A stretch of DNA of 53,473 nt from Alphaproteobacteria bacterium. Its GTDB lineage: Bacteria; Pseudomonadota; Alphaproteobacteria; Rs-D84. Below the pieces are notes generated by a model. That model was given only the letters and a program-made list of their open reading frames with translations. It was not told the origin of the DNA and searched no databases. Of the stretch, positions 5,193-29,806 are shown piece by piece (the first letter of the stretch is position 1; every line of letters starts with the position of its first letter). The DNA lies in contig JAFZHX010000038.1 of NCBI GenBank assembly GCA_017554665.1, forward strand, positions 1 to 53,473, read 5' to 3'. The translations under genes were made by a program, and so were the position numbers.

Positions 5193-5204
5193 AAAGCATA
5201 ATAA

Positions 5205-7097
5205 ATGAAAAAACTGTTTATAACATCTTTACTAACAATATTAACTTTACCTGCATTTGCAGAAAATGCGGCTAACCCTTTTGATAATGCTACAACAAAA
5301 GAAGAAGCTTGGACAATCTTTGAAGATAAAGCTTCGGCTATTTTAAAAGAATCTAAAGCAAAGTTGAAAAATTCTGAATATTCCAAATTGGAAAAACAGT
5401 ATAAAAATATGCTTGAAGACAAAAACGAAAAAACAAGCAAAAAAGATAAAAAGAAAAAAGACGAAGAACAAAATAAAAAGAAGTTATCGCCAGAAGAACA
5501 AGAACAAAAAATCTCGGAACTGCGCGACAATGCCGAAGCCATGAAGGAAAAAGAACAGTCCTTTGAAAACAAAGCGTTGGGTGCAGCAGCTATTGGCACA
5601 ACTGGTATGGGCGCGATGGAGCTAGCATCCGGACTTGCAGAAAAAACTGCAGACGAAGATGCAGAACGTTCAATGAAGGCTTATCTTGCTACATTTACTT
5701 GCAAATATGGCGACAAACGCGTCAAAGGCGGCACAATGAATGTAGAACTGCCTGGCGGAAACGAACTGATTAACCTGTACAGCGAATATGTAACATTAGC
5801 AAATGATTTGAAAGTTCGTAAAAACGCACTGGGCATGTTGCCAGGTATTGAGTCAGAATCTATCTTGGACAAATCTACAAGTGGATTGTATGACGATGTA
5901 AATATTGGTAAAACAGGTGGCGCATATACATCTTTGGCTCGCGCACTGATGGACCCAACTGGCGAAGATGCACAAAAATGGAATGCAGAAAAACAAGCTT
6001 CTGCTGACAAGGTGAAAAAAGGCGCAACAGCTGCTGGCCTTGGCGCAATTGGTGGCTTGATTGGAAACTTGGCTATCAATGGAAAATCTCCAAAAGAACG
6101 CTCGGAAGAAATAAATAAAAAATATGAACCTTTGAAAAAAGAATTCACAGAAGTTCAAGAAGAAATAGAAGAAAAACACAAAGAAAAACTCACCAAAGAA
6201 ACTTGCGCCAAATATGACGCAGTCGGTGAAAATATCGAAAGCAGTTGCTCTTGCTCTGATGAAAACAGTTATTGGGATTCTAACAATATACAATGCACAT
6301 CTTGTGAAGAAGATCAGATTGTTAACGAAGACAAAACAAGCTGCATACCAAAACCTGGACCAAGTTGCGAATTACAACCCGGCAATTTAACAGATGAAAA
6401 TTGCGCATGTATAAACGAAGCTGAAAAAGATGAAAATAATGCTTGTGTTTGTAATTTAACTGGCACATTTAATGCAAACTCATGCGAATGCAACGAACAT
6501 TCAACTAAGAATGGTAACGCATGTGCATGCGATTCGAATTACAAGCCTGACCCAAAAGCTCCTACTACTTGCATTCCAGAAGTAGCCGAAGTAGTAGCTG
6601 CTGAAGAACCAATACAAACATTCTCTTTCCCTTCGGATACATTCTTTGATGTTGGCAAAGCTACACTAAAAGACGATGCAGGTAGCCTGCTTAAAAAAAT
6701 AACAGATGTGATAAAACAAAAATATCCAGATAAAGCTGCTGAAATACTTGCATCATCATGCTTTACAATCAACGGATATGCAGACAGAACCGGCAATTAC
6801 AAAAAAAATCAAACCTTATCTGAAAGCCGCGCTCACTCGGTTGCAAAAGCATTGGTTACAGCTTCTGGTGGCAAGATAACAAACAATAGCTATGTAGTAT
6901 CTGGCAAAGGCGATACAGAATGCACAAGAACAGATTATCCAAAAAAAGCAGACCTCGCAAAATGTCGTCGTGTTGACATAGTGCTAAACTCAGGTTCTTG
7001 TTCCGCCCCTGTCGCAGAATCAGGCGATGGTGCAGCCAATAAAGCAAACACAATAGAAACAGCCACAAAAGTAGTGACAGGCATAATAAAAAAATAA
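5205..7097 (+). CDS. Secreted modular protein D (630 aa): K/E-rich coiled region, glycine-zipper segments, CxC-rich module, C-terminal OmpA-type peptidoglycan-binding domain
   Basis: It starts 12 nt after gene C. Signal peptide MKKLFITSLLTILTLPAFA. Glycine-zipper-like segments are ALGAAAIGTTGMGAMELASGLA and ATAAGLGAIGGLIGNLAI. CxC motifs occur repeatedly (CSC, CAC, CVC, CEC, CAC). The C-terminus carries the OmpA_C hallmarks FFDVGKATL, INGYADRTGNYKKNQTLSESRAHSVAKAL, SGKGD and CRRVDIVL. Confidence 0.85.
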   Translation: MKKLFITSLLTILTLPAFAENAANPFDNATTKEEAWTIFEDKASAILKESKAKLKNSEYSKLEKQYKNMLEDKNEKTSKKDKKKKDEEQNKKKLSPEEQEQKISELRDNAEAMKEKEQSFENKALGAAAIGTTGMGAMELASGLAEKTADEDAERSMKAYLATFTCKYGDKRVKGGTMNVELPGGNELINLYSEYVTLANDLKVRKNALGMLPGIESESILDKSTSGLYDDVNIGKTGGAYTSLARALMDPTGEDAQKWNAEKQASADKVKKGATAAGLGAIGGLIGNLAINGKSPKERSEEINKKYEPLKKEFTEVQEEIEEKHKEKLTKETCAKYDAVGENIESSCSCSDENSYWDSNNIQCTSCEEDQIVNEDKTSCIPKPGPSCELQPGNLTDENCACINEAEKDENNACVCNLTGTFNANSCECNEHSTKNGNACACDSNYKPDPKAPTTCIPEVAEVVAAEEPIQTFSFPSDTFFDVGKATLKDDAGSLLKKITDVIKQKYPDKAAEILASSCFTINGYADRTGNYKKNQTLSESRAHSVAKALVTASGGKITNNSYVVSGKGDTECTRTDYPKKADLAKCRRVDIVLNSGSCSAPVAESGDGAANKANTIETATKVVTGIIKK

Positions 7098-8373: not shown

Positions 8374-8441
8374 GAATTTTCCCCTTTTTTTCGTTGCTTT
8401 TATATAATTTGTTTTGCTATGGTAACGCAAAAGGGGAACAA

Positions 8442-9857
8442 ATGCTAGAATATTTAAGAAATGCGTCTGAAAAACCAGTCGCGAAAATTTTGATTAGTAT
8501 ATTGGCTTTTTCATTCGTGGGATGGGGGGTCGCAGAATGGATTTTTGGCGGAACAGTTGGCGACAACACAGTGATGCACATCGGTAAAGCCGATATTTCT
8601 GTACAACAGTATAACTCTGAAAAATCACGTGAATTGGCGCTTATGACACGTGAACAGCAACGCGCTGTTTATGCAGATGCCGAAGCACAAAATGATTTTT
8701 CACAACAAGTATTAACAAAAATTGCAACACAGCAGATGGTGCACAATCATGCAAACGAATTGGGCTTTGCTGTCAGCGAAAAACGAATCGCACAAGAAAT
8801 ACGTGATTTTCCTGACTTCCAAGTAAATGGCAAATTCTCCACTGTTGCATTTGACAACATCTTGAACAACTCCGGTTATTCCGAAGCTGAATTTGCAAAT
8901 GTTCTGCGTGGTCAGATTTTACGTTCTATGGTTTTAGGCTCTGTGTCTGCACCAGTATCTGTATCAGAATTTGCAGTTCAAGCCGCATATAATGCCAGAT
9001 ATGGCAAACGCGACATTGAATACACTACTGTAAAGTTTGCAGACTTCAAGGTTTCAGAACCAACTGACAAACAACTACAAGAATTTTACAAGCAAAACCC
9101 ACAAACATTACCTGAAACAAGGGCTGTTTCATATGTATTCATAGAAACAGATATGTCGCAACCAGATAAATATGATGCGGGTTATGCTACTGCAGTCAAA
9201 ATCGAAGACGATATCATCGCTGGCGAAACAATGAAAGACGCTGCAAAAAAACACGGCGCAAAATATGTTTCTTTAAAGTCATTTGATCGCGATCATCGTC
9301 CTGTTGATACACTGCTAACCGATTCGATGGTTACAAAAATCTTTGACATGGAACCACAGCTAGAAAGCGAAATGATAGAAACCAAAAACGGTTTTGTGTT
9401 CGTTCGTGTTGATGAAGTAAAACCTGCACACACAGCAGAATTCGACACAGTGAAAAAATCACTAACAAACGATTGGAAAAAAGCAGAACAAAAAAAGCAA
9501 GCTTATGTACATGCAAACGAACTGCTGGTTAACCTGAACAAAAAAGGCGGCAGTCTTGCTAATAAAAAAGTTGCTACTGTTTCTCGTGCAGAAGGCGCAC
9601 CAGCAGAACTTTTAGTACCTGCTTTCCGCAATAAAATCGGTCAAAACTCTATCGAAAATGGCACAGATTCTTTCTATATATTAAGCATCAAGAAAGCAAC
9701 TGCACCAAAAGTAGAACAACGCAAAATGGACAACCTGCGCAAAGAATTGCAAAACATGTCCGCTACAGGATTACAAGAAGACTTTAATTCTTTCTTGAAA
9801 CGTGAATATCCTGTAAAAATAAACGAAAAAGTTTATAATCGTGTATTCGGAAAATAA
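8442..9857 (+). CDS. PpiD-like periplasmic chaperone (SurA N-terminal domain type), membrane anchored
   Basis: MLEYLRNASEKPVAKILISILAFSFVGWGVAEWIF is the typical PpiD N-terminal anchor. The start is the ATG at 8442 after AAGGGGAA. Confidence 0.75.
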   Translation: MLEYLRNASEKPVAKILISILAFSFVGWGVAEWIFGGTVGDNTVMHIGKADISVQQYNSEKSRELALMTREQQRAVYADAEAQNDFSQQVLTKIATQQMVHNHANELGFAVSEKRIAQEIRDFPDFQVNGKFSTVAFDNILNNSGYSEAEFANVLRGQILRSMVLGSVSAPVSVSEFAVQAAYNARYGKRDIEYTTVKFADFKVSEPTDKQLQEFYKQNPQTLPETRAVSYVFIETDMSQPDKYDAGYATAVKIEDDIIAGETMKDAAKKHGAKYVSLKSFDRDHRPVDTLLTDSMVTKIFDMEPQLESEMIETKNGFVFVRVDEVKPAHTAEFDTVKKSLTNDWKKAEQKKQAYVHANELLVNLNKKGGSLANKKVATVSRAEGAPAELLVPAFRNKIGQNSIENGTDSFYILSIKKATAPKVEQRKMDNLRKELQNMSATGLQEDFNSFLKREYPVKINEKVYNRVFGK

Positions 9858-9885: not shown

Positions 9886-10845
9886 CTAAACAACCTCTGT
9901 AACCGCACGCAAAGCACCATCGCGCGACAATTGCACAACCCTGATTTTCTTTCTCATTTCTTCGATTAAATCTGCACGATTATATGCCGGCTGAGTATGC
10001 AATATTCTATCTGCAAACGCAGCATATGCAGCTTCTGCGCTTTCCGCATGAATCGTTGTATAAAAGTGGTCATGCCCTGTTCCCAACATTTCCCATAAAA
10101 CAGACGCATTATCCGTTGAAATTTCACCACCAATAATTACATCAGGTGTCATACGAACAACCAAGTCTAATAACCTAGCATAATTAAAATCATTTGTTTG
10201 CTCTGTACGCGACAAAATAAAATGTAAACGATTCGCCTGAGGTACACGAATTTCACGTGCGTCTTCAACAGTAATAACACGACTATTTTTATCAATCAAT
10301 GTCAGCATATGATTTAAAAATGTTGTTTTTCCCGTTGCCGTAGCACCACTAATCAATATCGGACTACCATCATTAATAGCAGACATCAATCTTTCATAAG
10401 GGTCATCAGGCCGAATATTTTCACGCGGCTTTACCTTTAACAACTGATGTCCTTTACGCAAATGATAATTTTCAAAACTTGTTTCATGGGCGCCACCACC
10501 ACGGATATTCAGTGCAACACCACCTGTAATATCGCGTTCATCATACTGAACATTAGGGCCCGCAATCGCAGTAAAACGATGATTTCCTGGCAAAGTAGCA
10601 TATACAACCGGAATACCATGCACAGGATCAAATGGTCGTTCATAAATATTCGCAACAGTATGAATTAAATCTACTAAGTACTGTTTACTTAAAACTTCAG
10701 CCTGATAAGAAACCCATGGAACACGTGCACCATGCAAGCGCATCCATACTTCACCAGCATGATTAATTGCGATCTCTTCTACGAACGAAGGCTTGTAGAA
10801 TTCTTCCAAAGGTTTCAATAAAGATTCTAGAACAACATTTGACAT
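9886..10845 (-). CDS. VirB11/PilT-class secretion ATPase (orphan)
   Basis: Walker A is ISGATATGKTTFLN, the Asp box is ITVEDAREI, Walker B is MTPDVIIGGEI, and the His box is GTGHDHFYTTIHAES. The start is ambiguous: ATG at 10845 (MSNVVLESLL) or TTG at 10881 as in the ORF track. Confidence 0.8.
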   Translation of the reverse strand: MSNVVLESLLKPLEEFYKPSFVEEIAINHAGEVWMRLHGARVPWVSYQAEVLSKQYLVDLIHTVANIYERPFDPVHGIPVVYATLPGNHRFTAIAGPNVQYDERDITGGVALNIRGGGAHETSFENYHLRKGHQLLKVKPRENIRPDDPYERLMSAINDGSPILISGATATGKTTFLNHMLTLIDKNSRVITVEDAREIRVPQANRLHFILSRTEQTNDFNYARLLDLVVRMTPDVIIGGEISTDNASVLWEMLGTGHDHFYTTIHAESAEAAYAAFADRILHTQPAYNRADLIEEMRKKIRVVQLSRDGALRAVTEVV

Positions 10846-10926
10846 CAATACAATTTTATCATAAATCGTGGCTTGAATCAAAACTGTTTATTTGATAAAA
10901 TAAAAAAAAAGTAAGAGAGAAATATT

Positions 10927-11487
10927 ATGAAAAAATCATTTTTATTTATCAGTTTGTGTGCAATTGCATTGTGTGGCTGTATGTCTGGCAGCAACCCATA
11001 TAACGAACGCGACTTTGCACAGGGCGGTCCAGATGCTCCACTCTACAACGAACGCACCAGCGGTTTTATGCAGGCTGACAATCAATACTCAAACATTGAT
11101 TCGTTCAAACCAAAAACATCTGCAGAAAAAGAACAAGCCAATAATCGTTGGAACACTTCCAGAAAAGATACTCGCTGGCAAGAATACAAAGGCGCAATGG
11201 TTCGCGTAGAAGTATTACTTGGCAACACCGATTTAAGAGAAATGAGATTACGTTTAATGCAAAACGCAGACGGTATGGATATCGATGGCGACATTCGTTC
11301 TATATTGGCCAATGTTGCAGATTATGAAATGAAACGAATTTGTGGTCGTAACGCAGAAAGTATTGTCATGATATATGATACACCTTCATTTGATGTTATG
11401 CGTCCAACACCATATTTCGACTACAGAATCGAAGCCGAAGGAACAACTATGCGCGAATACGGCTTTAGATGTGTTTACAACAATTAA
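10927..11487 (+). CDS. Hypothetical lipoprotein (186 aa)
   Basis: Lipobox LCGC in MKKSFLFISLCAIALCGCMSG. An SD (AGAGAG) lies upstream. I recognise no family. Confidence 0.7.
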   Translation: MKKSFLFISLCAIALCGCMSGSNPYNERDFAQGGPDAPLYNERTSGFMQADNQYSNIDSFKPKTSAEKEQANNRWNTSRKDTRWQEYKGAMVRVEVLLGNTDLREMRLRLMQNADGMDIDGDIRSILANVADYEMKRICGRNAESIVMIYDTPSFDVMRPTPYFDYRIEAEGTTMREYGFRCVYNN

Positions 11488-15376: not shown

Positions 15377-15407
15377 CAAATCCCCCAAACGGGGGATTTA
15401 TTTTTTT
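15377..15407. terminator. Bidirectional rho-independent terminator
   Basis: aaatccccc-aaac-gggggatttattttttt, located between convergent genes. Confidence 0.8.
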
Positions 15408-18400
15408 AGAACTGGCTACGGAATTTAAACATACCTGTTTGTGAAGTATATGCTTCGTGTACGTCCAAATCATACATTACGCTAAATTCTAAGCCCTTGT
15501 ATTCAGCAGTCAAGCCAATACCAACTTCACCACCGAACGCAGAGATACTTTCGCCATCAACATTATATGATGCACCAATACCTGGGATAGAAACAGTAGC
15601 GCGTTCACCATCTCTGATAACATCGTATGTCAAAGCTGCACGCATTTCAGGACGGAACTTTAACATATCTTCTGTTTCAACATAGAACGAATATCTCAAT
15701 CCGATTGTGTTTGTCAGGAAATTTGTATTCTGTTCTGCAATTGTGTTAACACCATTATCATATTCGTCTTGTACGATATGCAAATAGCGGAAGCCAATTT
15801 CAGGTGTAAGACCTGTTGCAAAATCATAACCCAACTTCATTTGTGCACCAAAAGCAGTTGAATCATATGTACTTTCGACAACAACACCAAATGGATCTGC
15901 ATTTTCTGTATGTTCAGCCATTGTATATGCCAATGTTGTGTTCAAGAACCATTTGCTTGGCTTATACTGACCATACAAGAACAATGTTTGACTATCGATT
16001 TCTGTATCACGTGTTCCAGAAGAAACTTCTGTATTATTGCATGCAAAACCTGCACCCAATGTATAAACACCATCAATCAGAGTATCAGCACCCAAGGCAA
16101 ATCCGCGTGTGTCGCCACTAAATGCGCTGCCAGATTTTGATTTGTTATACAAACCTTGTGCCCAGAAGCCATTTTCCTGTGGTTTATCACCACCTGCACG
16201 ACCAACATGTGTTGTTGCGCCTGCCATACGACCAGATGTCAAAGTCAACACTTGGTTATTAACTGTAGAAGCAACAGATGTTGTAACAGGTTTATCTTCT
16301 GGATTCAATTTTGCTGTTTCTTGTTCGATTTTTGCAATCGCGTCAGCATCATCAGAGTTCAACAACTTTTGTGCAGCCAAAGAAACCATTTGAATATTTC
16401 TATTGGTTGAATTTGCCAAACTATTGATTGCGCCAGCAGCTTGTTGTGAAATACCTGTATCTGCAGTCAATGTTTCAACAGACTTCATTTCGATAACAAC
16501 ACCATCTTTACCGTTGTTTGTTACAGTATATGCTTTACCAGCATCAATTGTGATATTATTATCACTGTTAAACATTTTGTAAGTACCAGCAGAGCCAACA
16601 TTCAAGTTGATAGTTCCATTACCTGAAACATTACCAAACAATTTAGCAAATGTTCCACTGTCTGAAACTCTGGTATTTTCGTTCTGTTCACCTCTATCAA
16701 TATAAGAAGTATTTGCTGCAGTCAAAACATCAGCATAAACAGTACCGTCCAAAACAATTTCTGATTGGATAATACTTGATGCACCCATATTCAGCACAGC
16801 ACCATTTTCCAAAGTGAACTTACCATCACCTGTAATACCACCTGTCAAAGACATTGTGCCACCAGATACAGTTATTGTACCCAAGTTGTGGATATCATTA
16901 TAATGTTTGCCAGCCTTGTTGTTCACAAAAGTATTTGTACCACTAAAGTCCATAACACCCTTGACATCGTTATAGATAGCACCACCGTTTACACCCGCAA
17001 TATTATCTTCAAATGTGTTCGAACCTGTAAAGAATACTTTACCATCACCAGTTGAAGCAGTTGGAGTAGAACCACCACCATAGTTAGGTGCAGAACCGTT
17101 AAATATTGCACCACCATTAACTTTTGCAACATTTGAAGTAAATTCAGTAGATTCTATTTCTACTTTACCTGCATAAACATTTGCAATTGCGCCACCAACT
17201 GAATAAGAAATATTTTCATCAAATTCAGACTTAATTATTTTCAATGTTTCATCTGCATAATGACGCGCTGCAATCGCACCACCACGAACACCAGAAACAT
17301 TGTCTTCAAAGTGAGCATTTGTCAATGTTGCGCTAGCATATTGTCCCAAATGAATAGCACCACCACCGTCAGCTTCTACAATATCTTCTGCTTTAAAAAC
17401 ATTTTTGTAAGCAACCGCAGCAGTATTTCCTTCGAACCAAACATTTGTCAGCTCGGAAACTGCATTGTTAAAGATACCCAAAGCACCAGCATCAGTCAAA
17501 GCATGGTTGTTTTTAAATACAGTGTATTCAATATCCATACCTTCGTTTGTGTATCTGGAACCATATATAGCACCACCAGCATAAGCTACGTTATTTTCAA
17601 AGGCTACTTTATCGAATTTTGTACCATTGATTTCTAACTTACCATAGTCAAAAATCGCACCCGCATAACCGCCGTCTGACCAAGCATCCTTACTTGCAAT
17701 GTTGTTTTTGAAGTTACCGCCATTGATGCTCAACACGCCTTCATTAAATATAGCACCACCATCAACAACAGATTTGTTTCCAACAAAGTCAGCACCAACA
17801 ATATTCAAAGAACCCGCATTATAAATTGCACCACCTTCTATTGCTGCGATATTGTCTTTGTATTCACCACCAACAATCTTCATAGAAGCTTTGTTATCTT
17901 TCTTATCCAATTCACCATTGTTATAGATAGCACCGCCCCTGTTAGCTTTGTTTGAAGTAAAATTAGATTTTTCTATATACACAGAATTTTTTTCATTCAA
18001 ACTGTCATAAAATGTTGAATAGATAGCACCACCATGTTCTTTTGCAACATTAGATGTAAAGTTTGTTTTAATAATATCTAAGTCAGCTGCACTATTATCA
18101 CCATCTGCTGCACCACGCATAGCAATCGCGCCACCATGATACATAGATTCATTTTCTTCAAATGTAGCATTTTCTATCAATACAACCGATTCGGAACCTA
18201 ATGCAATAGCACCGCCACCCATTTGTTCTGTATTGTTTTCAAAATCAGTCTGTGCTTTATTTTTTCTAAATATGGCACTATCCACATTTAAATATCCAAA
18301 ATTAGCAATTGCACCACCGTCAAAACGTACAACATTGTTTTCAAATAAAACATCCTTGCCTACATTCAATGTGGACTTATCACCTTTGCTAGTTGTAGAA

Positions 18401-18678
18401 AAAATACCAACATCAGCCTTGTTATTTGTAAATTCAGCTCCAGTGTTTAGAGTTAAAGTATTTCCAGCCAAAATGTAAAAGACTGAATCCAAACCACCGA
18501 ACGCTGTTGTAGATGTATCTACCCAAGAAAAAGAATCTTCTGCACCATAAATAGTATCTGCAGAAATTACTTGCTCTGACTGTTTTTGATATTCGTCTGC
18601 AAAAGCAGGCACAACCGCAAAAACCGGCAAGATACTGCAAACTTTTACCAAGTCTGCCAAATGTTTTATATTGGACAT
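15406..18678 (-). CDS. Autotransporter with Pmp-type (polymorphic membrane protein) GGA[IL]/FxxN repeats (1090 aa)
   Basis: AAGGAG SD and a signal peptide ending PAFADEY. There are more than 15 paired motifs, for example FTSNVAKEHGGAIY, FTSNKANRGGAIY, FVGNKSVVDGGAIF, FENNVAYAGGAIY, FEDNVSGVRGGAIA and FEDNIAGVNGGAIY. The C-terminus is a beta-barrel with alternating aromatic residues, ending FKFRSQF. Confidence 0.85.
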   Translation of the reverse strand: MSNIKHLADLVKVCSILPVFAVVPAFADEYQKQSEQVISADTIYGAEDSFSWVDTSTTAFGGLDSVFYILAGNTLTLNTGAEFTNNKADVGIFSTTSKGDKSTLNVGKDVLFENNVVRFDGGAIANFGYLNVDSAIFRKNKAQTDFENNTEQMGGGAIALGSESVVLIENATFEENESMYHGGAIAMRGAADGDNSAADLDIIKTNFTSNVAKEHGGAIYSTFYDSLNEKNSVYIEKSNFTSNKANRGGAIYNNGELDKKDNKASMKIVGGEYKDNIAAIEGGAIYNAGSLNIVGADFVGNKSVVDGGAIFNEGVLSINGGNFKNNIASKDAWSDGGYAGAIFDYGKLEINGTKFDKVAFENNVAYAGGAIYGSRYTNEGMDIEYTVFKNNHALTDAGALGIFNNAVSELTNVWFEGNTAAVAYKNVFKAEDIVEADGGGAIHLGQYASATLTNAHFEDNVSGVRGGAIAARHYADETLKIIKSEFDENISYSVGGAIANVYAGKVEIESTEFTSNVAKVNGGAIFNGSAPNYGGGSTPTASTGDGKVFFTGSNTFEDNIAGVNGGAIYNDVKGVMDFSGTNTFVNNKAGKHYNDIHNLGTITVSGGTMSLTGGITGDGKFTLENGAVLNMGASSIIQSEIVLDGTVYADVLTAANTSYIDRGEQNENTRVSDSGTFAKLFGNVSGNGTINLNVGSAGTYKMFNSDNNITIDAGKAYTVTNNGKDGVVIEMKSVETLTADTGISQQAAGAINSLANSTNRNIQMVSLAAQKLLNSDDADAIAKIEQETAKLNPEDKPVTTSVASTVNNQVLTLTSGRMAGATTHVGRAGGDKPQENGFWAQGLYNKSKSGSAFSGDTRGFALGADTLIDGVYTLGAGFACNNTEVSSGTRDTEIDSQTLFLYGQYKPSKWFLNTTLAYTMAEHTENADPFGVVVESTYDSTAFGAQMKLGYDFATGLTPEIGFRYLHIVQDEYDNGVNTIAEQNTNFLTNTIGLRYSFYVETEDMLKFRPEMRAALTYDVIRDGERATVSIPGIGASYNVDGESISAFGGEVGIGLTAEYKGLEFSVMYDLDVHEAYTSQTGMFKFRSQF

Positions 18679-18845
18679 GTGTTCTCCTTTTTTGACCCCA
18701 CATCATTTACTGGGTTATGCTTTTATTCGTAGCACATATATTTACTTTATCAACAAAAACTTTTTTTATTTTTTTGAAAATTCAAAGAAACCGTGAACAT
18801 CAACAAAACCAAAGGTTAAACAAAAAATTATTAAAAATAATTTGT

Positions 18846-18877
18846 AAAAAAAATGTCCCGTTTGGGACATTTTTTTA
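18846..18877 (-). terminator. Rho-independent terminator after the giant autotransporter
   Basis: aaaaaaatgtccc-gttt-gggacattttttt. Confidence 0.75.
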
Positions 18878-21800
18878 AAAACGATACGAACCTGATACTT
18901 TTATATTATGCAATTGTACATTTTCATTATACTGGTATCTATAATCTACACCAACTTGCATTCCGCGTGCGGACAAGAACTCAACACCACCGCCAATATT
19001 TGCCCACAAAGGATTTATTTCGATATCGTATTCAGAATACTTTGTTGTTGTTGCGAATTTATATTCTACAGAATTATTTATACCCAGCACATCATATTCA
19101 GCACCAATACTTGCATAAGGACGAATTTGGAACGAAGCTGATGGATAAATTCTTTTCTGTGCTGTCAAAGAATATCCCGCAGTAGCAACCGAATATCCGT
19201 CTAAATTCATCTCCATATATTCACTACCTGCTGCATCTTCTGTAATGCTCATACCAGAGTTGTATCCAACACGACCATATACATTACCAACAAAGTATTG
19301 ATTTAACAGATTATGCATCCAACCAAATTCAGACATCAAGCTAACCGCCGCACCAGAACCTTCTATTGTATCAACAAAAGACTGATCACGTTGTACATTT
19401 ACCACATGTATATCAGCAAACAAATTACCATACACACGATTATCTTCATTAAATGTCTTCATAAAATATCCACCCAACCCGATATTTGTATCAGAAACTT
19501 GGCTATCGATATTTCCATACTGTGTAACTGTGCCATAACTTAAATCAACCTCTTTGTCCAAGAGAGATGTAGAGTGTGTGATATGACCTGTAAAACCTAA
19601 AATCAAGTCTTCAGATTCTTGCCAGTCAAAACCACCAGAAATACTAAATCTATCACCGTCTATATGATTACCAGCAATTGTATTTTGATAGAACATGCCG
19701 AAATCTACATCCATCCAAGACTTTTTCAAGCTACGTCCACGATTCCATATAAATTCATCGAACATTCTATCTTCAAAAGAACGGAATACTGTATGTTCAT
19801 TCAAAGCCATAGTTGTAGCAATCTGTTCTATTTCATAAGCTTCAAACAAGCTACTAAATCTTGTCAAAGCTTCTCCATTACGTTCTACGATATAGCTTTC
19901 CATACGATTATACAGTTCCGAAGCAACCTGTGATAAGTTTGTTCCCTTGAACACAGTTGGTATAACTTCGATAGGAGTTCTGTTATAGAACTTTTTAGCT
20001 TCTAAACGACCCGCTATCATATTATCCAAAGCGTCTGCTGCTGCAGATTCAGAAGTAGTACTTTTTTGCTCACGACTAACAATCGGATGAATATCGAACA
20101 CCTGTACAGGGCCACCGAACTGATTATCAAACACGATATACACACTATCTGCCTGACCATCGTTATTTGTATCACGAACAGTCGCATACGCAGGCAAGCC
20201 ATCTGGGTTATTTTCATCCAAATCATTAAAGTAAGGAACACAAACAGAACCATCTGCATTACAGAACTTAATATTCATATTACGGATATTTGTATCAAAG
20301 TTATAAACCCCGCCTTCTGCATACAACAACCAAACAGCCTTATTTGCATCAACTATATCAAACAAGCTAACACCAAACTGTCCATCTTCTAATACCGGAG
20401 AATCAACGCTACCCAAATCACCTATACTTAAGTCGGCAACAAATTTACCACCAACATTAATCAAAGCACTTGCGTCCGAAGTATGTACAATCTTGCCGTA
20501 ACTATCATCATCATTCAGACTAATGCTTCCCCAATAATTAACATCTGTTGTATTCATACCAGAGCCTGCCGCATAAGGCAAAACCGCAACATTAAGAGCA
20601 CTGTTTTCATTAAAGGTATAGTTATTACCAATAAACATTTTTTCTAAACCAATAAAATCAACATTACCCGAAACATCACCGCCTACTACAACATTCATCC
20701 AGTTATTTACAGGACTTGCTGCAATTCGCAAATCAGATGCAACAATATCGCCGTCAATTTGAACGTCACTAGAGTTGATTACCAAAGAACCACTTTGCGC
20801 AATACCACCAACATGAACATTACCCAAATTCATAACATAGTCAGCATTATTAATGATAACCGAAGCATCAGCTACCTCCTGCCCTAAAACACCATTAGAA
20901 TAGAACATACCAGCAGTACTTAAACCTGTACTTGTAAAGATTATGTTACCACCATTTACAGCAACAGAATCTACCGCAATTTCATTTGCCCCTGAATCAA
21001 GTTCCAGCAATCCTGCATCGTTAACAATGGCACCAGACAAAGAGATTCCATTATCAGCGACAATATTTGTATAACCGCTATTTAACAAATCGTTTGCTAC
21101 AAATTTATTTGCAACATCAAATTCTACAAAAGTACTTCCTGCAATATTTAAATCACCTGTCAAATTAACATCCGAAGCAATTTTATACAGCATATCGCCA
21201 GTTTCTGCGAACATATTTCCTGTAACAATCAAATTATCTACAACCAGCTCATCCATATTTAGCAGGTTCAAGTTTCCAGAAACACCACCCTGTGAAACAT
21301 TTCCTGCTACATACAAATCATTATTAGCAAGAGACATACTTGGCGCATAAAGATTTACATTGCCACCATAAACGCTTATTCCCTGTGCGCTAATTGTATC
21401 TGCATACAAATCCATATTACCTGAATTATTCACAATAGCCCCTGCTACATCCAATTTATCAATAGCAGTACCAGAATCTACATAAGCTATTTTAAAGTTA
21501 CCACTATTCGTTATAGAGTTCACAGACACATTGTCAAAAACCAGTACATTTACAGTTCCATTGACCGCATTAGTAATATTTTGCAATGTAACACTTTGAG
21601 TATTTAGACTAAGCACTCCAGAATTGCTTATCGAACCAGCGATATCAATTGTATTTTCTGCGCTTAACACCAAAGTTCCAGCACTAGTAATATCGCTTGA
21701 TACAGAAAGATCTTTTTCAGACTCTACATACAAAGTCTTTGCTGTTTTTACATCAATTCCGTCCAAGAAAACATCATAGTTCGCATTGTCTGACTTTAAT

Positions 21801-24004
21801 GTAAACATAGGAGTATCTAACAAAGAAATTCCCGCACCAGTTGTAACAACATCATCAAATCTAAGCATGCCATTGACATTAATATCACTATCAGTTACAA
21901 TCAAAGAAGAGCCGTGTCCTCTTATTAAACCTTGATTATCCAAAACGCTAATATTGGCCAAGCTTGAATAAATTTCAAACACACCGTCCGAGCTAACACT
22001 TACTGTATCTGTAACATTCAGCACAGAAGCCACACTAGAAGTTTCATCACCAAAAGCAACACGACTGCCAACAATATTAACATTATTTACATTAACATCA
22101 TCAGACGCCAGCTGTAAAGAATATCCAGAGTTAGTTGCATCAATATTATCTAAATTAACCGAGCCATCAGCGCCAAAAACAAGGCTGGTCGACCCTACAT
22201 TAATATTACCCGCAACATTTGCCGTACCGCCCAGCACAATATTATTAGCAGTTACATCACCACCAGCTAACAACAGAGCAAGTTTATTTGAAAGATTTAA
22301 TACACCATTACCAACAGTTACCCCATATGTAACCGTAGCACCCGAAGTTGCACTAAGATTAACAGCGCCACCCTCTACATTAAGTCTGCCAGCAGCCACA
22401 GTAGAACCAGAAACATTAAAATCACCGGATTTATTATTTAATTCACCTGTAACACTTATATTTTTAGCATTTAATATCAAGTTTCCTGTATCATTAGTTA
22501 TATTACCACCAATTAATACACTACCCAAACCATCCATAGGCGAACCAATTTTCAACACCGAGCCAGCACCACTATTTGCAACATCTTGCAGTTCCAAACT
22601 AGATGCACTCAGATTCAAATTTCCTTGATTTGTTACCAAAGCACCTGCTTTCAAAGAATTAGATGCAGAAATTATTGAAGATGCACCATTAACAACTTCT
22701 ATTGCTGCGCTAACCCCATCTATATTTTGACCACCCAACACAATATTATTGGCAGAAACTTTCATTGTATTATCAGTTCCTGTTACAGTCGCATTATCCG
22801 AAATATAATCAGCAGACAAAGTTCCAGAAACATTCAATAACATTCTAGAAGTGCTGTTTTCATTTACAATTACCGAAGCTTCTAAATCACCATCTGTTAC
22901 ATTCAGCTTAAAATCCGTCAAGCTATTTAACAGTGCTTTATTTGCACCCAAATTCATCTGCCCAGTAGTCAGCGAGAACACACCACCAGTCAAACTCCAT
23001 CCAGAAGCCAAGCTTGTCAGACCTGTAACATTAGCTACAAAATCATTAGAGCTAACAAAAGAATAACCATCTGCCCCTATTCCCAAAACTTGCCAAGATT
23101 GCAAATTTTGCAATACCATTTTTCCAGTATCTGAATCGTGCTTCATAGTACCAGCAACACTCAAAGCACCGTTACTTATAACCATAGACAAACCAGAATT
23201 TTCTAGTCCGCCGCCTATTGTAATATCACCGGCTGCCGACAACAAAACAGAAGAAGTCTGAGAATTATTCTGCACACCACATGTAATTTCCATATCTCCA
23301 GCTGCAACAACACTAGCTGTTCCGTCCAACACAGTCAGACCACCAAGACCGACATCACCACCTGTAGTAGCACCGCCTCCCTGATCCAACAAAGCTGTTT
23401 TCAAATTTAAAATACCACTCGAGTTAACATTACCAACAGTTATACTGCCTACATTATCTGCTTTAAAGGCAGCCGAAGAAGCAATCGATACTGCACCATT
23501 AACTTTTACATCTTTCAAATTCAAAAAACACAAAGACGAATCGGCACCAACAAGCCCTACACTTCCCGCAGAAAAAGAAGCATCAAGAACACCAGTAGCA
23601 GTATTCTCTGAACCTAAGACAGACAAACTCCAACCATCCAGAACCTGTAACAAAGAGCCGATAGAAACCCCACGCACAGATGAAATCTCAAAGCTTTTAT
23701 TGGCATTCGCTACATCCATAATATACAAATTACCACTGGTTCCCAACCCTGATTCAGATGCCTGACCAACAACCATATTATTCGAAAAAGTTATACCATA
23801 ATCACCAATTGCCTGAACATCATTCAAAGAGCTTCCAGCATTAATCTGTACCGTCTGCCCATTTTCAACAGCATTCTGCCAAACAGATAAATTAGTAAAA
23901 ACAATACCATCCGAAGACACATTGCTATCTTCAATCTTAACAACATCAGCCACGGCACCCATTGGCAACACACAGCACAACAAAGAAATTATCTTTTTAA
24001 ACAT
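18875..24004 (-). CDS. Giant autotransporter/adhesin-like protein (about 1709 aa)
   Basis: Signal peptide MFKKIISLLCCVLPMGAVA. I placed the start at the ATG at 24004; the ORF track extends to 24061. The long G/N/S/V/L-rich passenger is beta-helix-like. The C-terminal barrel ends VSGSYRF. Confidence 0.8.
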   Translation of the reverse strand: MFKKIISLLCCVLPMGAVADVVKIEDSNVSSDGIVFTNLSVWQNAVENGQTVQINAGSSLNDVQAIGDYGITFSNNMVVGQASESGLGTSGNLYIMDVANANKSFEISSVRGVSIGSLLQVLDGWSLSVLGSENTATGVLDASFSAGSVGLVGADSSLCFLNLKDVKVNGAVSIASSAAFKADNVGSITVGNVNSSGILNLKTALLDQGGGATTGGDVGLGGLTVLDGTASVVAAGDMEITCGVQNNSQTSSVLLSAAGDITIGGGLENSGLSMVISNGALSVAGTMKHDSDTGKMVLQNLQSWQVLGIGADGYSFVSSNDFVANVTGLTSLASGWSLTGGVFSLTTGQMNLGANKALLNSLTDFKLNVTDGDLEASVIVNENSTSRMLLNVSGTLSADYISDNATVTGTDNTMKVSANNIVLGGQNIDGVSAAIEVVNGASSIISASNSLKAGALVTNQGNLNLSASSLELQDVANSGAGSVLKIGSPMDGLGSVLIGGNITNDTGNLILNAKNISVTGELNNKSGDFNVSGSTVAAGRLNVEGGAVNLSATSGATVTYGVTVGNGVLNLSNKLALLLAGGDVTANNIVLGGTANVAGNINVGSTSLVFGADGSVNLDNIDATNSGYSLQLASDDVNVNNVNIVGSRVAFGDETSSVASVLNVTDTVSVSSDGVFEIYSSLANISVLDNQGLIRGHGSSLIVTDSDINVNGMLRFDDVVTTGAGISLLDTPMFTLKSDNANYDVFLDGIDVKTAKTLYVESEKDLSVSSDITSAGTLVLSAENTIDIAGSISNSGVLSLNTQSVTLQNITNAVNGTVNVLVFDNVSVNSITNSGNFKIAYVDSGTAIDKLDVAGAIVNNSGNMDLYADTISAQGISVYGGNVNLYAPSMSLANNDLYVAGNVSQGGVSGNLNLLNMDELVVDNLIVTGNMFAETGDMLYKIASDVNLTGDLNIAGSTFVEFDVANKFVANDLLNSGYTNIVADNGISLSGAIVNDAGLLELDSGANEIAVDSVAVNGGNIIFTSTGLSTAGMFYSNGVLGQEVADASVIINNADYVMNLGNVHVGGIAQSGSLVINSSDVQIDGDIVASDLRIAASPVNNWMNVVVGGDVSGNVDFIGLEKMFIGNNYTFNENSALNVAVLPYAAGSGMNTTDVNYWGSISLNDDDSYGKIVHTSDASALINVGGKFVADLSIGDLGSVDSPVLEDGQFGVSLFDIVDANKAVWLLYAEGGVYNFDTNIRNMNIKFCNADGSVCVPYFNDLDENNPDGLPAYATVRDTNNDGQADSVYIVFDNQFGGPVQVFDIHPIVSREQKSTTSESAAADALDNMIAGRLEAKKFYNRTPIEVIPTVFKGTNLSQVASELYNRMESYIVERNGEALTRFSSLFEAYEIEQIATTMALNEHTVFRSFEDRMFDEFIWNRGRSLKKSWMDVDFGMFYQNTIAGNHIDGDRFSISGGFDWQESEDLILGFTGHITHSTSLLDKEVDLSYGTVTQYGNIDSQVSDTNIGLGGYFMKTFNEDNRVYGNLFADIHVVNVQRDQSFVDTIEGSGAAVSLMSEFGWMHNLLNQYFVGNVYGRVGYNSGMSITEDAAGSEYMEMNLDGYSVATAGYSLTAQKRIYPSASFQIRPYASIGAEYDVLGINNSVEYKFATTTKYSEYDIEINPLWANIGGGVEFLSARGMQVGVDYRYQYNENVQLHNIKVSGSYRF

Positions 24005-24042
24005 TTTTTCTTCTTTTATTCCATTCCTAAATATGGTTATAA

Positions 24043-25377
<1,335 letters not shown>

Positions 25378-26032: not shown

Positions 26033-26111
26033 ATTCTTCCCCTTTGGTTGTTTCCGTAAATTCATCATAACATCCCCCTGCAAACTTTTGTTTAGGAACC
26101 TTTGCTAAACA

Positions 26112-26139
26112 TTGACAAACTGCGTATTTGTATTATATT
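26112..26139 (+). promoter_or_regulatory. Candidate promoter for the S8 autotransporter
   Basis: TTGACA (26112-26117), a 16-nt spacer, then TATATT (26134-26139). The ATG at 26144 is only 4 nt downstream, which implies a very short leader or none. Confidence 0.35.
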
Positions 26140-26143
26140 AATA

Positions 26144-28024
26144 ATGTGTGGGTATGTTACCTGCCAAGCATGGAGAAAACGATTGAGTTCATATAGAACA
26201 TTTTTGTCAGCATTTATTAGTTGTGCAATTATGATTGCACCTGCTGTTGCAGCTCAAAACAAATGTAGCAATGATATGTACCGTCTTTCAAATCCTGAAA
26301 AATGCTCTAATACAAATCACTTGTCTTTTGCAACCAGCACAACAGTTGCTGGTGGTGGCCTGGTTTTAATTGGCGGCGCACTAGCTTTGTTTAGCAGTAC
26401 ATCCAGCAGCAATTCGACCGCCACCCCATCAAAAGCGACAACAACTCGCACTTCTTATGACGAAGTTGGCAACGACATCGACTATTCTCGTTATGCCAGC
26501 GCAATCGGTCAAAACTCATATACACGAAACGCAGTTCAATACGATGAAATTCGTTTAGGCTATTCTTTGGCACGTGGTTACACTGGGAAAAATTCAACTA
26601 TTGCTGTATTTGACTCTGGCATTGATACACCTCACGGCAACGCAGTTGTACACATTGCAACAGACCAAGTTGCACCTGATGCAAAAGTCGAATTGTACGA
26701 AGTATCAGATTCAAAAGACAAATTTAAATCATTTTATGAAATCGGCAACATTATTTCTTCTGCCCAAGGTGCTAACATTTATAATTTCAGCTGGGCTGAT
26801 ACAAGCTCTTTTGCGAACGAAGTTTATTCTCGTTCTCAATTTGAATATATGACCGACCCACATTTTGTAGAGTCTTTAACACAAGCCGCCACACAACACG
26901 ATGCTATTTTCGTTTGGGCAGCCGGCAATGAATACAATTATCAATCAAGTTCTTTATCTGCGATGCCACGCGTTATTCCAGAATTAAAAGGCCACTTTGT
27001 AAATGTAGTTGCATGGGACAGCGAAACACAATCTTTGGCAACATTTAGTAATGCGTGTGGTGTTACTATGAACTATTGTATAACAGCACCTGGCACAGAC
27101 CTAAAATCAAGCCAATCAAACAAAGACTTGAATGGCACCAGCTTTGCAGCACCAATTGTATCCGCAGCGATTGCAGTTATTCGCGAAGCATTTCCATACA
27201 TGAAATCAAGTGAAATCACAAACTTGCTATTCACTACAGCTCGCGATTTAGGCGATATCGGTGTTGATAAAATATACGGTCATGGCATGCTGGATATGGA
27301 GCGCGCTACCCGCCCTGTTGGCGCAACAACTGTTCCTTTGGCAGACGGCTCTAATATCGCCATGCAGAACTCTCGCTTGGGAAGCACAATCGGTAATCAA
27401 ATAAAAGCAAGAAATATCAAATTGTCTTTTGTTGACAGCTTTGGTCGTGCTTTTGAAACGAACTTGAACGACAATATCACCATCAAAAATCGCGGCATTG
27501 GTTTTGAAAGACTAAAAGACAACAACATCAACAATGTAAAAATTGGCAACATTGAAATTGGCTTTAAGCAAACAGACATGTTAAATGCCAGCGGCATTTT
27601 ACAGACAAAATCACACGACATTTTAAGTTTTATTGGTTTCCAAGACAAAATCAACCTGGGTCAAATTACTTTATCATACCGCACAACATTTGGCACAATG
27701 AACCCAGAAACCACACCAGAATCTATTATATCCGATTTTTCTAGCATATACACAGCATCTGCGAACATTGCTATCCAGTATAAAGATTTCAGTTTTTCAG
27801 TTGGCACCCCAAACACAATTATTGGTGGCGACATGCAATTACACACCCTATCAAGTCGCAATGCTAATGGAGACTATGTATTTAGCGACCACACAATTGA
27901 TATGGTTTCCACACCGTCAATAGAATACAGCGCTTCATACAAATCTGTAACTATGGGCTTTGTTGACAATCCTTATGGCACAGACGAGTTTTATATTTTA
28001 ACTAAAACAAACATTCGCTTCTAA
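26144..28024 (+). CDS. Subtilisin-like (S8) serine protease autotransporter
   Basis: The extended signal peptide ends AVAA|Q. The catalytic motifs are AVFDSGID (Asp), TPHGNAVV (His) and NGTSFAAPIVSAA (Ser). The C-terminal ~250 aa look like a beta-barrel and end TNIRF. The ORF track starts at the TTG at 26102; the ATG at 26144 is more likely. Confidence 0.8.
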   Translation: MCGYVTCQAWRKRLSSYRTFLSAFISCAIMIAPAVAAQNKCSNDMYRLSNPEKCSNTNHLSFATSTTVAGGGLVLIGGALALFSSTSSSNSTATPSKATTTRTSYDEVGNDIDYSRYASAIGQNSYTRNAVQYDEIRLGYSLARGYTGKNSTIAVFDSGIDTPHGNAVVHIATDQVAPDAKVELYEVSDSKDKFKSFYEIGNIISSAQGANIYNFSWADTSSFANEVYSRSQFEYMTDPHFVESLTQAATQHDAIFVWAAGNEYNYQSSSLSAMPRVIPELKGHFVNVVAWDSETQSLATFSNACGVTMNYCITAPGTDLKSSQSNKDLNGTSFAAPIVSAAIAVIREAFPYMKSSEITNLLFTTARDLGDIGVDKIYGHGMLDMERATRPVGATTVPLADGSNIAMQNSRLGSTIGNQIKARNIKLSFVDSFGRAFETNLNDNITIKNRGIGFERLKDNNINNVKIGNIEIGFKQTDMLNASGILQTKSHDILSFIGFQDKINLGQITLSYRTTFGTMNPETTPESIISDFSSIYTASANIAIQYKDFSFSVGTPNTIIGGDMQLHTLSSRNANGDYVFSDHTIDMVSTPSIEYSASYKSVTMGFVDNPYGTDEFYILTKTNIRF

Positions 28025-28604: not shown

Positions 28605-29702
28605 TTATTCCTCACACAATTCTACTGCATAGAATTCATCGGAAGACATAAGGTTAGCAGAACCACAATAAACACGATAATTACATGTGCGTTCTGGTTT
28701 TCCTAATAATTTCCATGACGCCAGTGGCACAACATTTATCAAGCAATAACCATCCTGAACATATTGTTGCGCTTCATTCACAGACAAAAACTTTGCATTT
28801 GCGGGTTTATTTGTAATCTTATACAAATCTTCAGTTGCAGGCACACGTATCAAAAAGTCTTTTCTTTTACCTTCTGCCAAAACAGCAGCACATTCATCTC
28901 CACAATCTTTTATAGCCTGACGCACAGTTTGAACTGCTTTCGAGTCAGAATAGATAAACTGATTTATTTTATACAAAACTTCGCAAGCATCTTTTTCATG
29001 ATCTTCTATTACTCCATCGTTTTGATATAGCTTCATATTGGAATAATCCCAATTTTGTGAAAGCAACAAAGCATCTTTCTGGGTCAGCACAATATGTTCA
29101 ACACCAATCTGCAATGCTAACTGATTACATTGAGTATTCATACAATATATTTTTTTAGTAATATCATTTATGCATCTTTCTATTTTATTTGGCATTTTAT
29201 AATTATGATTAAAAGGTACTTTAGCACTCCAATTTCTACCTATATATTCTTCTTTCACAGGCTGACAAAAATGCCCTATGCTATATTCTCTACCTTCTGC
29301 ATTAGTTGTTTTTTCTCCTATAAAATTAAGGTCATACTGCAAAATTTGCTTATCAGCGATATCGGCATAAATACTCAACAACGCAGTTCTTTCAGAACCA
29401 GGGAAATTACCTTTATAAGATAGACGAACATATCCAAATTCACCGTGATCTTTAGCTTCTATAACTTTTTCAAATACGGTTGTTATATTATCTACTGTAA
29501 CTTTCGCATAATCTTCATAAGTAGTAACTTTCACATTTATTTTTGTATCATTTGTATCAAAATCTCCATAAGCATTTTTTAAATACAAAGCATTTACATT
29601 CGACCAATATTTATCCACTTCACAAGACAACTCCACATCAGAAGTCGCACTGTCGCATCCAGCAAGTGCAATAACAGGCAATAAAAACAACATTTTTTTC
29701 AT
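28605..29702 (-). CDS. Hypothetical Cys-containing lipoprotein (about 365 aa)
   Basis: Lipobox LAGC in MKKMLFLLPVIALAGCDS. The start at 29702 follows GGGAGAG. There are about a dozen Cys. I recognise no family. Confidence 0.7.
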   Translation of the reverse strand: MKKMLFLLPVIALAGCDSATSDVELSCEVDKYWSNVNALYLKNAYGDFDTNDTKINVKVTTYEDYAKVTVDNITTVFEKVIEAKDHGEFGYVRLSYKGNFPGSERTALLSIYADIADKQILQYDLNFIGEKTTNAEGREYSIGHFCQPVKEEYIGRNWSAKVPFNHNYKMPNKIERCINDITKKIYCMNTQCNQLALQIGVEHIVLTQKDALLLSQNWDYSNMKLYQNDGVIEDHEKDACEVLYKINQFIYSDSKAVQTVRQAIKDCGDECAAVLAEGKRKDFLIRVPATEDLYKITNKPANAKFLSVNEAQQYVQDGYCLINVVPLASWKLLGKPERTCNYRVYCGSANLMSSDEFYAVELCEE

Positions 29703-29806
29703 AGACTCTCTCCCTTTTATTCCAGACAAAGACATTATACCATAAAAAATAACACTTGTACAAACAATCCTATTTTTATAAAATTCTAATAACCAAGGAG
29801 ACAACA

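Follow-up and report, generated by a model that had tools for sequence, protein, structure and literature searches.

Introduction

The polymorphic membrane proteins (Pmps) of Chlamydia, such as PmpD of C. trachomatis and Pmp21 of C. pneumoniae, are built from a signal peptide, a passenger of paired FxxN and GGA(I,L,V) repeats, and a C-terminal PF03797 barrel that ends in Phe. Two independent modelling studies placed the paired FxxN/GGA motifs in the buried interior of rungs of at least 27 residues (PMC10715098, PMC11166332). Adhesion is the role of chlamydial Pmps and of most β-helical autotransporters of their type (PMC2997323, PMC9289746). A middle domain, PMP_M (PF07548), is characteristic of the chlamydial proteins (PMC11166332), and through their multiple cysteines they are thought to be linked into the chlamydial outer membrane complex (PMC8326573, PMC6752827). 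A further feature attributed to chlamydial Pmps is a conserved Asp in 'Rung 0', which seeds an Asn ladder. In this study, we analysed a gene with such repeats at positions 15406-18678 of a 53,473-nucleotide stretch of alphaproteobacterial DNA (contig JAFZHX010000038.1; hereafter the window). An earlier note on this DNA had linked the repeats, together with cysteine-rich exported proteins encoded in the same genome, to a disulfide-crosslinked envelope like that of Chlamydia, either convergent or horizontally acquired. We found instead that the protein is best read, with a probability of about 0.72, as a conserved type Va autotransporter of the order Rs-D84, which has a Pmp-type β-helix rod, is likely an adhesin, and is neither chlamydial nor recently acquired.

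Pmp repeats are also present in more than 100 non-chlamydial species (PMC10715098), and chlamydial proteins account for 443 of the 1448 UniProt proteins with PF02415 (PMC11166332). In proteins of Methanobrevibacter, Phycisphaerae and Trichomonas, as in the protein studied here, the repeat serves as a modular β-helix block outside the Chlamydiae (PMC10715098). These non-chlamydial PF02415 relatives differ from it in that many have no autotransporter domain, and a function has been demonstrated in none of them. The autotransporter A0A1C7PBX1 of Akkermansia glycaniphila (PMC11166332), likewise from a gut bacterium, does fuse the Pmp repeat to an autotransporter barrel, but it belongs to another lineage and is of another length, with 43 rungs against 17 in the protein described here.

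The gene comes from Candidatus Enterousia, a gut alphaproteobacterium of the order Rs-D84 that has not been cultured and whose genome measures about 0.9 Mb. Enterousia genomes were reported to span 0.75-1.0 Mb and to encode a purely fermentative metabolism, with neither a respiratory chain nor flagella (PMC12306168). Standard sugar and amino-acid transporters are missing from Rs-D84, rod-shape and peptidoglycan genes are kept, and an obligate symbiotic or parasitic lifestyle that draws metabolites from other cells has been proposed (PMC12306168). Autotransporters and adhesins were not mentioned in that report.

Results

Pmp-type repeats form the passenger of a 1090-residue protein

The open reading frame (ORF) list of the window gives a minus-strand ORF at 15406-18678 that starts with ATG and encodes 1090 aa. 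The gene was assembled without any difference in three independent gut-metagenome runs, which rules out an assembly artefact. Scoring against hidden Markov models (HMMs) of the repeat, as the earlier note had suggested, was strongly positive. PF02415 (Chlam_PMP) matched at 90.8 bits (E 7.9e-27; gathering cut-off 20.6) in Pfam, and TIGR01376 (POMP_repeat) matched at 61.6 bits (cut-off 15) in NCBIfam. The three repeat peptides quoted previously were all located, FTSNVAKEHGGAIY from aa 207, FVGNKSVVDGGAIF from aa 298 and FEDNVSGVRGGAIA from aa 457. GGAI was observed 13 times, while 2000 shuffles averaged 0.37 and gave 4 at most; for FxxN, the 19 occurrences (17 in the passenger) compare with a shuffle average of 5.0 and at most 13.

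More than 15 motif pairs had been claimed for the passenger. This number holds for rung-like units, of which 17, each 25-57 aa long, follow one another in register from aa 83 to about aa 640; it does not hold for strict pairs. Twelve of the units are canonical FxxN-x5/6(or x20)-GGAI pairs, one is a YxxN+GGAI variant, and four, beginning at aa 83, 323, 388 and 584, are degenerate. The spacing from one GGAI to the next is 25-71 residues, mostly 25-34.

We then compared the repeat region among orthologues. Conservation was 0.86 at motif residues versus 0.47 elsewhere in the region. Insertions and deletions were whole-rung units of 28-31 columns, plus one block of 293 columns; they comprise 28-column insertions, one 31-residue rung that is absent from most orthologues, and the 293-column block, which is found in forms of about 1300 aa. 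Since the motif residues are conserved and the indels are rung-sized, the structural skeleton of a rung is likely to consist of FxxN and GGAI, leaving loops and rung number free to vary. This is the pattern to be expected of such a skeleton, and it agrees with the models of chlamydial Pmps (PMC10715098, PMC11166332).

Predicted architecture is that of a type Va autotransporter

An AlphaFold2 model was built from 28 orthologues (mean predicted local distance difference test score, pLDDT, 82.1; predicted TM-score 0.69). In this model, residues 1-27 are disordered, short periodic β strands extend over 36-731, five helices over 734-818, and 12 long strands over 837-1089. The features derived from it and from the sequence are listed in Table 1. 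The repeat region was modelled with a pLDDT mostly above 90.

The signal peptide has a basic n-region, a hydrophobic core and an AFA motif. No other part of the protein is as conserved: its mean pairwise identity is 0.77, versus 0.42 in the passenger, and Leu17, Pro18, Pro24, Ala25 and Ala27 are invariant among the orthologues. The conservation acts on amino acids and falls off sharply at residue 28. Cleavage after Ala27 is probable because the conservation stops abruptly there. Selection on this region at the RNA level was considered and rejected, as codon positions 1 and 2 were conserved at 0.87 versus 0.66 for position 3.

The N-terminal cap that follows has an insertion hot spot of 32 columns after aa 51. 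At the other end of the passenger, segment 656-675 is missing in more than 50% of the orthologues; the part from aa 613 to 731 to which it belongs is, by analogy with PMC11166332, a candidate for an autochaperone-like base of the β-helix. The last helix of the linker, at 798-818, is a candidate pore-spanning helix in the model.

A C-terminal barrel ending in Phe had been proposed earlier, and the proposal was borne out. The PF03797 autotransporter β-domain matched at 104.5 bits (cut-off 26) over aa 838-1069, the protein ends in ...FKFRSQF, and the terminal Phe is present in 119 of 120 orthologues. When the model was searched against the PDB with Foldseek, the top matches were the autotransporter translocators NalP, EspP, BrkA, Hbp, EstA, AaaA and AIDA-I. 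Target TM-scores were 0.56-0.79 for entries of isolated β-domains and about 0.4 for full-length EstA and AaaA. The type Va translocators NalP, EspP, BrkA, Hbp, AIDA-I and EstA share the 12-stranded barrel with a preceding helix, but their identity to the protein is only 12-18% and their passengers are unrelated to it in sequence. Neither the Pfam nor the NCBIfam scan found a catalytic domain in the protein. With the barrel, signal peptide, helical linker, β-helical passenger and terminal aromatic residue all predicted, the protein appears to be a classical (type Va) autotransporter.

Table 1. Coordinates, strand and supporting evidence of the features in the window
Feature	Coordinates	Strand	Evidence
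Pmp-repeat autotransporter, full coding sequence (1090 aa + stop)	15406..18678	-	ORF list; PF02415 and PF03797; TIGR01376; three identical metagenome assemblies
Signal peptide, aa 1-27 (MSNIKHLADLVKVCSILPVFAVVPAFA), predicted cut after AFA	18598..18678	-	Conservation drop at residue 28; pLDDT <50; cleavage site predicted from these
Variable N-terminal passenger cap, aa 28-82	18433..18597	-	Lowest conservation in the protein (0.29-0.36); short AlphaFold2 β strands
Predicted Pmp-repeat β-helix, aa 83-612 (last unit extends to about aa 640), 17 rungs	16843..18432	-	Motif register; short periodic AlphaFold2 strands; conservation
Non-repeat C-terminal part of the passenger, aa 613-731, predicted β, variable loop 655-675	16486..16842	-	AlphaFold2 strands 620-731; low pLDDT at 655-675
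Helical linker, aa 732-836, five predicted helices	16171..16485	-	AlphaFold2 secondary structure; mean pairwise identity 0.57
Predicted 12-stranded autotransporter β-barrel, aa 837-1090, terminal Phe	15409..16170	-	PF03797; AlphaFold2; Foldseek
Shine-Dalgarno sequence AGGAG, 5 nt 5' of the ATG	18684..18688	-	Direct sequence reading
Bidirectional intrinsic terminator common to the Pmp gene and the convergent ccrM-like gene	15378..15399		Terminator scan (both strands); sequence read
Hairpin and T-run directly after the stop of the upstream gene 18875-24061	18845..18870	-	Inspection only; not reported by the terminator scanner
SurA-like periplasmic chaperone/peptidyl-prolyl isomerase, likely helper of autotransporter biogenesis; action on the Pmp protein putative	8394..9857	+	PF13624, PF13623, PF13145
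Two paralogous Cys-rich exported proteins of about 1000 aa, 42 Cys each, 41% mutual identity	44903..50935	-	Pairwise comparison

Orthologues are conserved across Rs-D84

More than 1880 homologues were found; the best 120 are 38-67% identical to the protein, and nearly all of them have the same two domains. The records of the best homologues are named 'MAG: autotransporter domain-containing protein [Alphaproteobacteria bacterium]' (MAG, metagenome-assembled genome), and the protein itself is already labelled an autotransporter in public annotation. GTDB species genomes, one genome per species, were scanned with the family alignment, and 141 matches were confirmed, which with the exception of one mislabelled bin all came from gut Alphaproteobacteria or Enterousia. 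A version of the scan that used the single protein with exact-peptide patterns was too specific and found nothing. We kept 78 loci, nearly all from Candidatus Enterousia or gut Alphaproteobacteria of humans, ruminants and chickens, among them a closed chromosome of 958,618 bp. These matches confirmed the alphaproteobacterial host that had been suspected from the sequence. The window is contained in sequencing runs of gut metagenomes, and partial matches came from bovine gut. One kept contig (locus L062, CAVGNU010000011.1) is labelled 'Bacteroides fragilis', but its gene order of DUF5662, choloylglycine hydrolase, Pmp orthologue and Cys-rich triplet is typical of Rs-D84, and it is almost certainly mis-binned or mislabelled.

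Among 28 orthologues, mean pairwise identity was highest in the signal peptide (0.77), followed by the barrel (0.63) and the linker (0.57), and stood at 0.42 in both parts of the passenger, the repeat helix and the non-repeat end. The window holds one ORF with Pmp motifs, and tandem duplicates occur in 5 of the 78 loci. The composition of the gene is typical of the window (GC content 0.377, GC content at third codon positions, GC3, 0.248, native codon usage), and its GC, GC3 and codon-usage distance were indistinguishable from those of neighbouring housekeeping genes. Recent horizontal transfer, which the earlier note had raised, was rejected on these ordinary values. As orthologues are wide in the lineage and GC and codon usage are native, the sequence evidence indicates that the protein is a conserved, vertically inherited orthologue across Rs-D84.

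Strain polymorphism drawn from metagenome contigs was uninformative, the three gene-holding runs being identical over the gene. The apparent metagenome variants lay mostly within the ccrM gene and were derived from co-resident relatives.

No specific affinity with chlamydial Pmps is detectable beyond the repeat

As described above, the Enterousia protein resembles chlamydial Pmps in its signal peptide, its paired repeats with predicted rungs of 27 residues or more, a rung number that varies between homologues, its Phe-terminated PF03797 barrel and a likely role as a surface adhesin. It differs from them in several respects. PMP_M is present in the chlamydial proteins but was undetected here, with no match at E≤0.01 over the whole protein and none at E≤10 over aa 590-840. 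Chlamydial Pmps have multiple cysteines, whereas the Enterousia protein has essentially none, and they occur as 9-21 paralogues, whereas the Rs-D84 loci examined point to a single conserved orthologue that is at times duplicated in tandem. The barrel of the Enterousia protein follows a linker of five predicted helices. The host also differs from Chlamydia in being an extracellular-looking, peptidoglycan-bearing gut alphaproteobacterium. Beyond the repeat, no specific sequence affinity between the two was detectable.

A search with the passenger only, against 1.84 billion cluster representatives, gave 5228 matches at E≤1e-3 and 1378 at E≤1e-10. Many of the matched proteins are 2000-8000 residues long with 10-22 matched stretches, and their records are labelled only 'hypothetical protein [bacterium]'. 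When four of these giant repeat proteins were scanned, one had an autotransporter barrel and three were repeat-only, with PMP_M in 0 of the 4. In a comparison of the family profile with solved structures, the sole bacterial relative of the passenger was rhombotarget A (RbtA; 9cdu, E 2.6e-05), and no chlamydial Pmp structure was detected. RbtA (PDB 9cdu/9cdv) has similar N..GG(A/V)IY-type repeats, and TIGR04212 matched at E 6e-4. Unlike the Enterousia protein, it is a GlyGly-CTERM/rhombosortase target and not an autotransporter, and the similarity is confined to about 250 repeat residues, well under family thresholds.

The earlier note had called Pmp-repeat autotransporters best known from Chlamydiae. 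With chlamydial proteins making up 443 of 1448 PF02415 entries (PMC11166332), this domain does not mark a protein as chlamydial. The Pmp repeat is a widespread modular β-helix unit, and because it is widespread outside the Chlamydiae, its presence says nothing specific on Chlamydia-like biology.

Cysteine-rich exported proteins are frequent neighbours

The earlier note had placed the gene among Cys-rich exported proteins, and this context was confirmed: at least 8 ORFs of the window have signal-peptide-like N-termini and 3.3-7.0% Cys. Orphan Cys-rich proteins lie at 549-7097, 28605-29807, 39496-41727 and 44903-50935. In a Pfam scan of 8 Cys-rich ORFs, the only match was an OmpA peptidoglycan-binding domain in one ORF (5205-7097), and none of the 8 matched the OmcA, OmcB or MOMP families. 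Two classes of Cys spacing were seen. C-x6-C runs occur in 549-1409, the N-terminal half of 1434-3209, 39496-41727, 44903-47914 and 47930-50935, and C-x12-C-x-C-x12-C in the C-terminal half of 1434-3209, 3318-5192 and 5205-7097.

The large Cys-rich family, represented in the window by the pair in Table 1, of which one copy is here called Cys1001, has at least 916 homologues, which all carry the label 'hypothetical' and derive from a single kind of MAG. Some 35 Cys are invariant and 34-43 are conserved, and 0 of the 120 listed members has a Pfam domain. A model of the family consists mainly of long helices after a disordered Ala/Pro/Lys-rich N-terminus, with no β-barrel, at low confidence (pLDDT 63). 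Foldseek gave no structural analogue at E≤0.001, and no fold was assigned. Rs-D84 is without a respiratory chain that would drive the formation of putative disulfides in these Cys-rich proteins.

We next examined how often Cys-rich genes and Pmp orthologues lie together. Among the 44 loci with at least 9 kb on both sides, 25 have a Cys-rich paralogue within 10 kb of the Pmp orthologue. The linked paralogues often form a triplet (-,+,+) about 2 kb downstream and belong to a more distant paralogue subgroup, with 21-38% identity. The reciprocal comparison started from orthologues of the window's Cys1001 (beside rpoA-rplQ) at seven places where the sequence on the far side of the gene continues for 10 kb or more; an eighth, L080, has almost no flank there. 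A PF02415 gene was present within 10 kb in 0 of the 7. The pairing proposed in the earlier note is thus seen from the Pmp side, and it failed from the side of Cys1001. In the closed genome (L069), no Dsb-type gene was found between the Pmp gene and the Cys-rich triplet. That interval holds only a polysaccharide pyruvyl transferase (PF04230; 13407-14384, +) and an ORF of 243 aa without known function, which hints that surface-polysaccharide modification genes share the Pmp neighbourhood.

The mature Pmp orthologues have 0 Cys in 102 of 120 cases and 1 Cys, which is not conserved, in the other 18; the window protein has 1 non-conserved Cys. Because the mature protein is essentially Cys-free, a covalent tie into a disulfide-bonded envelope is excluded. 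The peptidoglycan-related genes of the window are an SLT lytic transglycosylase and the OmpA domain, and RodA, MreB and MrdA were reported for Rs-D84 (PMC12306168). As these are kept, a lattice that replaces the sacculus is not called for.

Transcription unit and neighbouring genes

The Shine-Dalgarno consensus over 59 orthologues was AAAGGAGAAAAT-ATG. The hairpin downstream of the preceding gene reads ATGTCCC-AAAC-GGGACAT followed by TTTTTTT and parts that gene from the Pmp gene. With a Shine-Dalgarno sequence and terminators of its own, the Pmp gene reads in the sequence as a separate transcription unit.

Directly upstream of the Pmp gene lies an ORF of 1728 aa (18875-24061, -) with an outer-membrane-protein-like C-terminus (...SGSYRF). 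Its signal peptide has a C[SC][IV]LP motif in common with the Pmp protein. It has no Pfam match, no PDB match and no Pmp motifs; as a candidate Pmp paralogue it was rejected, there being no meaningful similarity. Within the fetched flanks, this ORF was limited to the two closest relatives, L002 and L003. It probably encodes another autotransporter-like surface protein that has gone unrecognised. Farther along, 26102-28024 (+) encodes an S8 subtilase (Pfam 106.6 bits) whose C-terminus is extended by about 240 residues and ends in ...NIRF. In the PDB it best matched a 618-aa 'extracellular serine protease' (8e7f), and it may be a NalP/SphB1-type subtilase autotransporter that processes surface proteins.

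A choloylglycine (bile-salt) hydrolase family gene with a signal peptide is located at 35039-36118 (+; PF02275 at 231 bits), adjoining a DUF5662 gene at 34434-34970 (+). In about 37 related loci the pair lies upstream of the Pmp orthologue as its usual neighbour; in the window it is 16 kb away. In a genome this reduced, the hydrolase represents a gut-adaptation gene. No other gene of the neighbourhood comes close in conservation to the one for a T2SSE-family secretion ATPase (9886-10881, -): at loci where the Pmp protein shares only 36-45% identity, that of the ATPase is 84-94%, and 91-94% with one locus left aside. Paired with it is a small lipoprotein-like ORF (10927-11487, +) with a Cys-containing N-terminus and no Pfam match.

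In loci L081-L086, an ORF of 691 aa without a Pfam match (about 17154-19229 in L081) lies just upstream of the convergent ccrM-nrdR-SLT block, and a Cys-rich pair lies a few genes further upstream. This is the slot of the Pmp gene in the window and in L001. Since the 691-aa ORF fills it, the Pmp orthologue must lie elsewhere in these genomes.

Discussion

The passenger of the Enterousia autotransporter is, by analogy with its family, most likely a surface adhesin. The 27-residue signal peptide would direct Sec export and be cut after Ala27. Periplasmic chaperones, for example the SurA-like protein encoded nearby, would then pass the protein to the β-barrel assembly machinery; a SurA-like gene lies near the Pmp orthologue in about 30 loci. 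The machinery would insert the C-terminal 254 residues as the predicted 12-stranded barrel with its terminal Phe. As in other members of the family, the helical linker would thread the pore and the passenger would be extruded, folding from its C-terminal end, with segment 613-731 acting as an autochaperone-like base. The passenger would form a right-handed β-helix of about 17 Pmp-type rungs in which FxxN and GGAI are stacked inside and the loops and rung number vary between species. At about 4.8 Å per rung, we estimate that 17 rungs and the caps would give a rod roughly 10 nm long. The exposed rod may bind a host surface or a partner cell. Because the lineage has been proposed to depend on a partner, the target of such an adhesin could be a host surface or a microbe.

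Several points weigh against this interpretation. Surface exposure and adhesion are argued from family resemblance, and the sequence suggests no ligand; β-helical passengers can have enzymatic or cytotoxic functions too. A run of RNA sequencing that holds the gene sequence was sought and none was found. The placement of the motif residues in a buried core of the rungs is a suggestion from their conservation and from the confidently modelled β-helix. The strong conservation of the signal peptide is not accounted for by a generic Sec route. Finally, the recurrent proximity of Cys-rich genes makes a non-covalent association possible.

The passenger may have a main role other than adhesion, as a protective or structural coat, as a factor for self-association or aggregation, or as an enzymatic or cytotoxic carrier directed against a partner cell. 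Such roles would suit a conserved gene with apparently one copy in bacteria that are believed to obtain metabolites from other cells (PMC12306168), and chlamydial Pmps are known to form oligomers and filaments (PMC8326573). Toxins such as VacA are also among the β-helix passengers (PMC9289746). The nearby subtilase with its outer-membrane-type C-terminus, whose gene lies beside the Pmp orthologue, two genes away, in L070 and L074, hints at proteolytic processing or release. However, Pfam and NCBIfam gave no catalytic domain, no conserved cleavage motif was identified, and the variable loops and rung number are as expected for a binding surface under diversifying pressure. We therefore consider a non-adhesive main role unlikely.

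The Cys-rich proteins allow a further view, in which the Cys-free Pmp autotransporter and these proteins would make up a cell-surface module for attachment to, and metabolite uptake from, another cell. The autotransporter would then be held non-covalently in a disulfide-stabilised protein layer or would project through it. We regard this as quite unlikely. If true, a gut alphaproteobacterium without a respiratory chain would have arrived at a surface that is functionally convergent with the envelope of Chlamydia.

In the form put forward by the earlier note, the autotransporter and the Cys-rich proteins would instead constitute a disulfide-crosslinked lattice of the outer envelope, which either converged on the outer membrane complex of Chlamydia or descends from it. 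The exported Cys-rich ORFs of the window, the invariant cysteines of a large family confined to the same lineage, and the linkage in 25 of 44 fully flanked loci, often as a conserved triplet, are in keeping with such a lattice, and the OmpA domain makes at least one Cys-rich protein envelope-located. Nevertheless, the 0-1 non-conserved Cys of mature Pmp orthologues excludes covalent incorporation. The Cys-rich proteins match none of OmcA, OmcB and MOMP, are mostly helical in a low-confidence model, and have no structural analogue. Peptidoglycan and rod-shape genes are retained in the lineage (PMC12306168), Pmp repeats are common in organisms without such an envelope (PMC11166332, PMC10715098), and no Pmp gene lies within 10 kb of the orthologues of the window's Cys1001 at the seven places compared. 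Where genomes measure about 0.9 Mb and keep their gene order, proximity is itself weak evidence. A lattice of this kind appears very improbable, and we do not retain the proposal. Acquisition of the gene from Chlamydiae or a common donor, as a true member of the chlamydial Pmp family, would account for the strong matches to HMMs seeded on chlamydial proteins and for the same order of signal peptide, repeats and autotransporter barrel, but can practically be dismissed, because PMP_M was undetected even at E≤10, GC, GC3 and codon usage are like those of neighbouring housekeeping genes, orthologues with conserved termini and partly conserved synteny extend across the whole order, the loci examined suggest a single conserved copy, at times duplicated in tandem, and not a paralogous family of 9-21, and two thirds of PF02415 proteins are non-chlamydial (PMC11166332).

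As an adhesin-like type Va protein, the Pmp autotransporter opens no new kind of system, and the orphan Cys-rich family beside the Pmp gene merits separate study. The Rs-D84 clade adds a well-sampled bacterial case in which Pmp repeats are a general β-helix block and not a chlamydial hallmark, and annotation-driven inference of Chlamydia-like biology from these repeats should be tempered. Neither Enterousia nor any other member of Rs-D84 has been grown in culture, and they occur widely in the guts of humans, ruminants and poultry. Of the candidates for an attachment factor in this order, a surface autotransporter that is both conserved and modelled with confidence is the most obvious one, and as such it would offer a practical handle for enrichment by antibody or display, for localisation by fluorescence in situ hybridisation or immunogold labelling, and for finding the partner or host surface.

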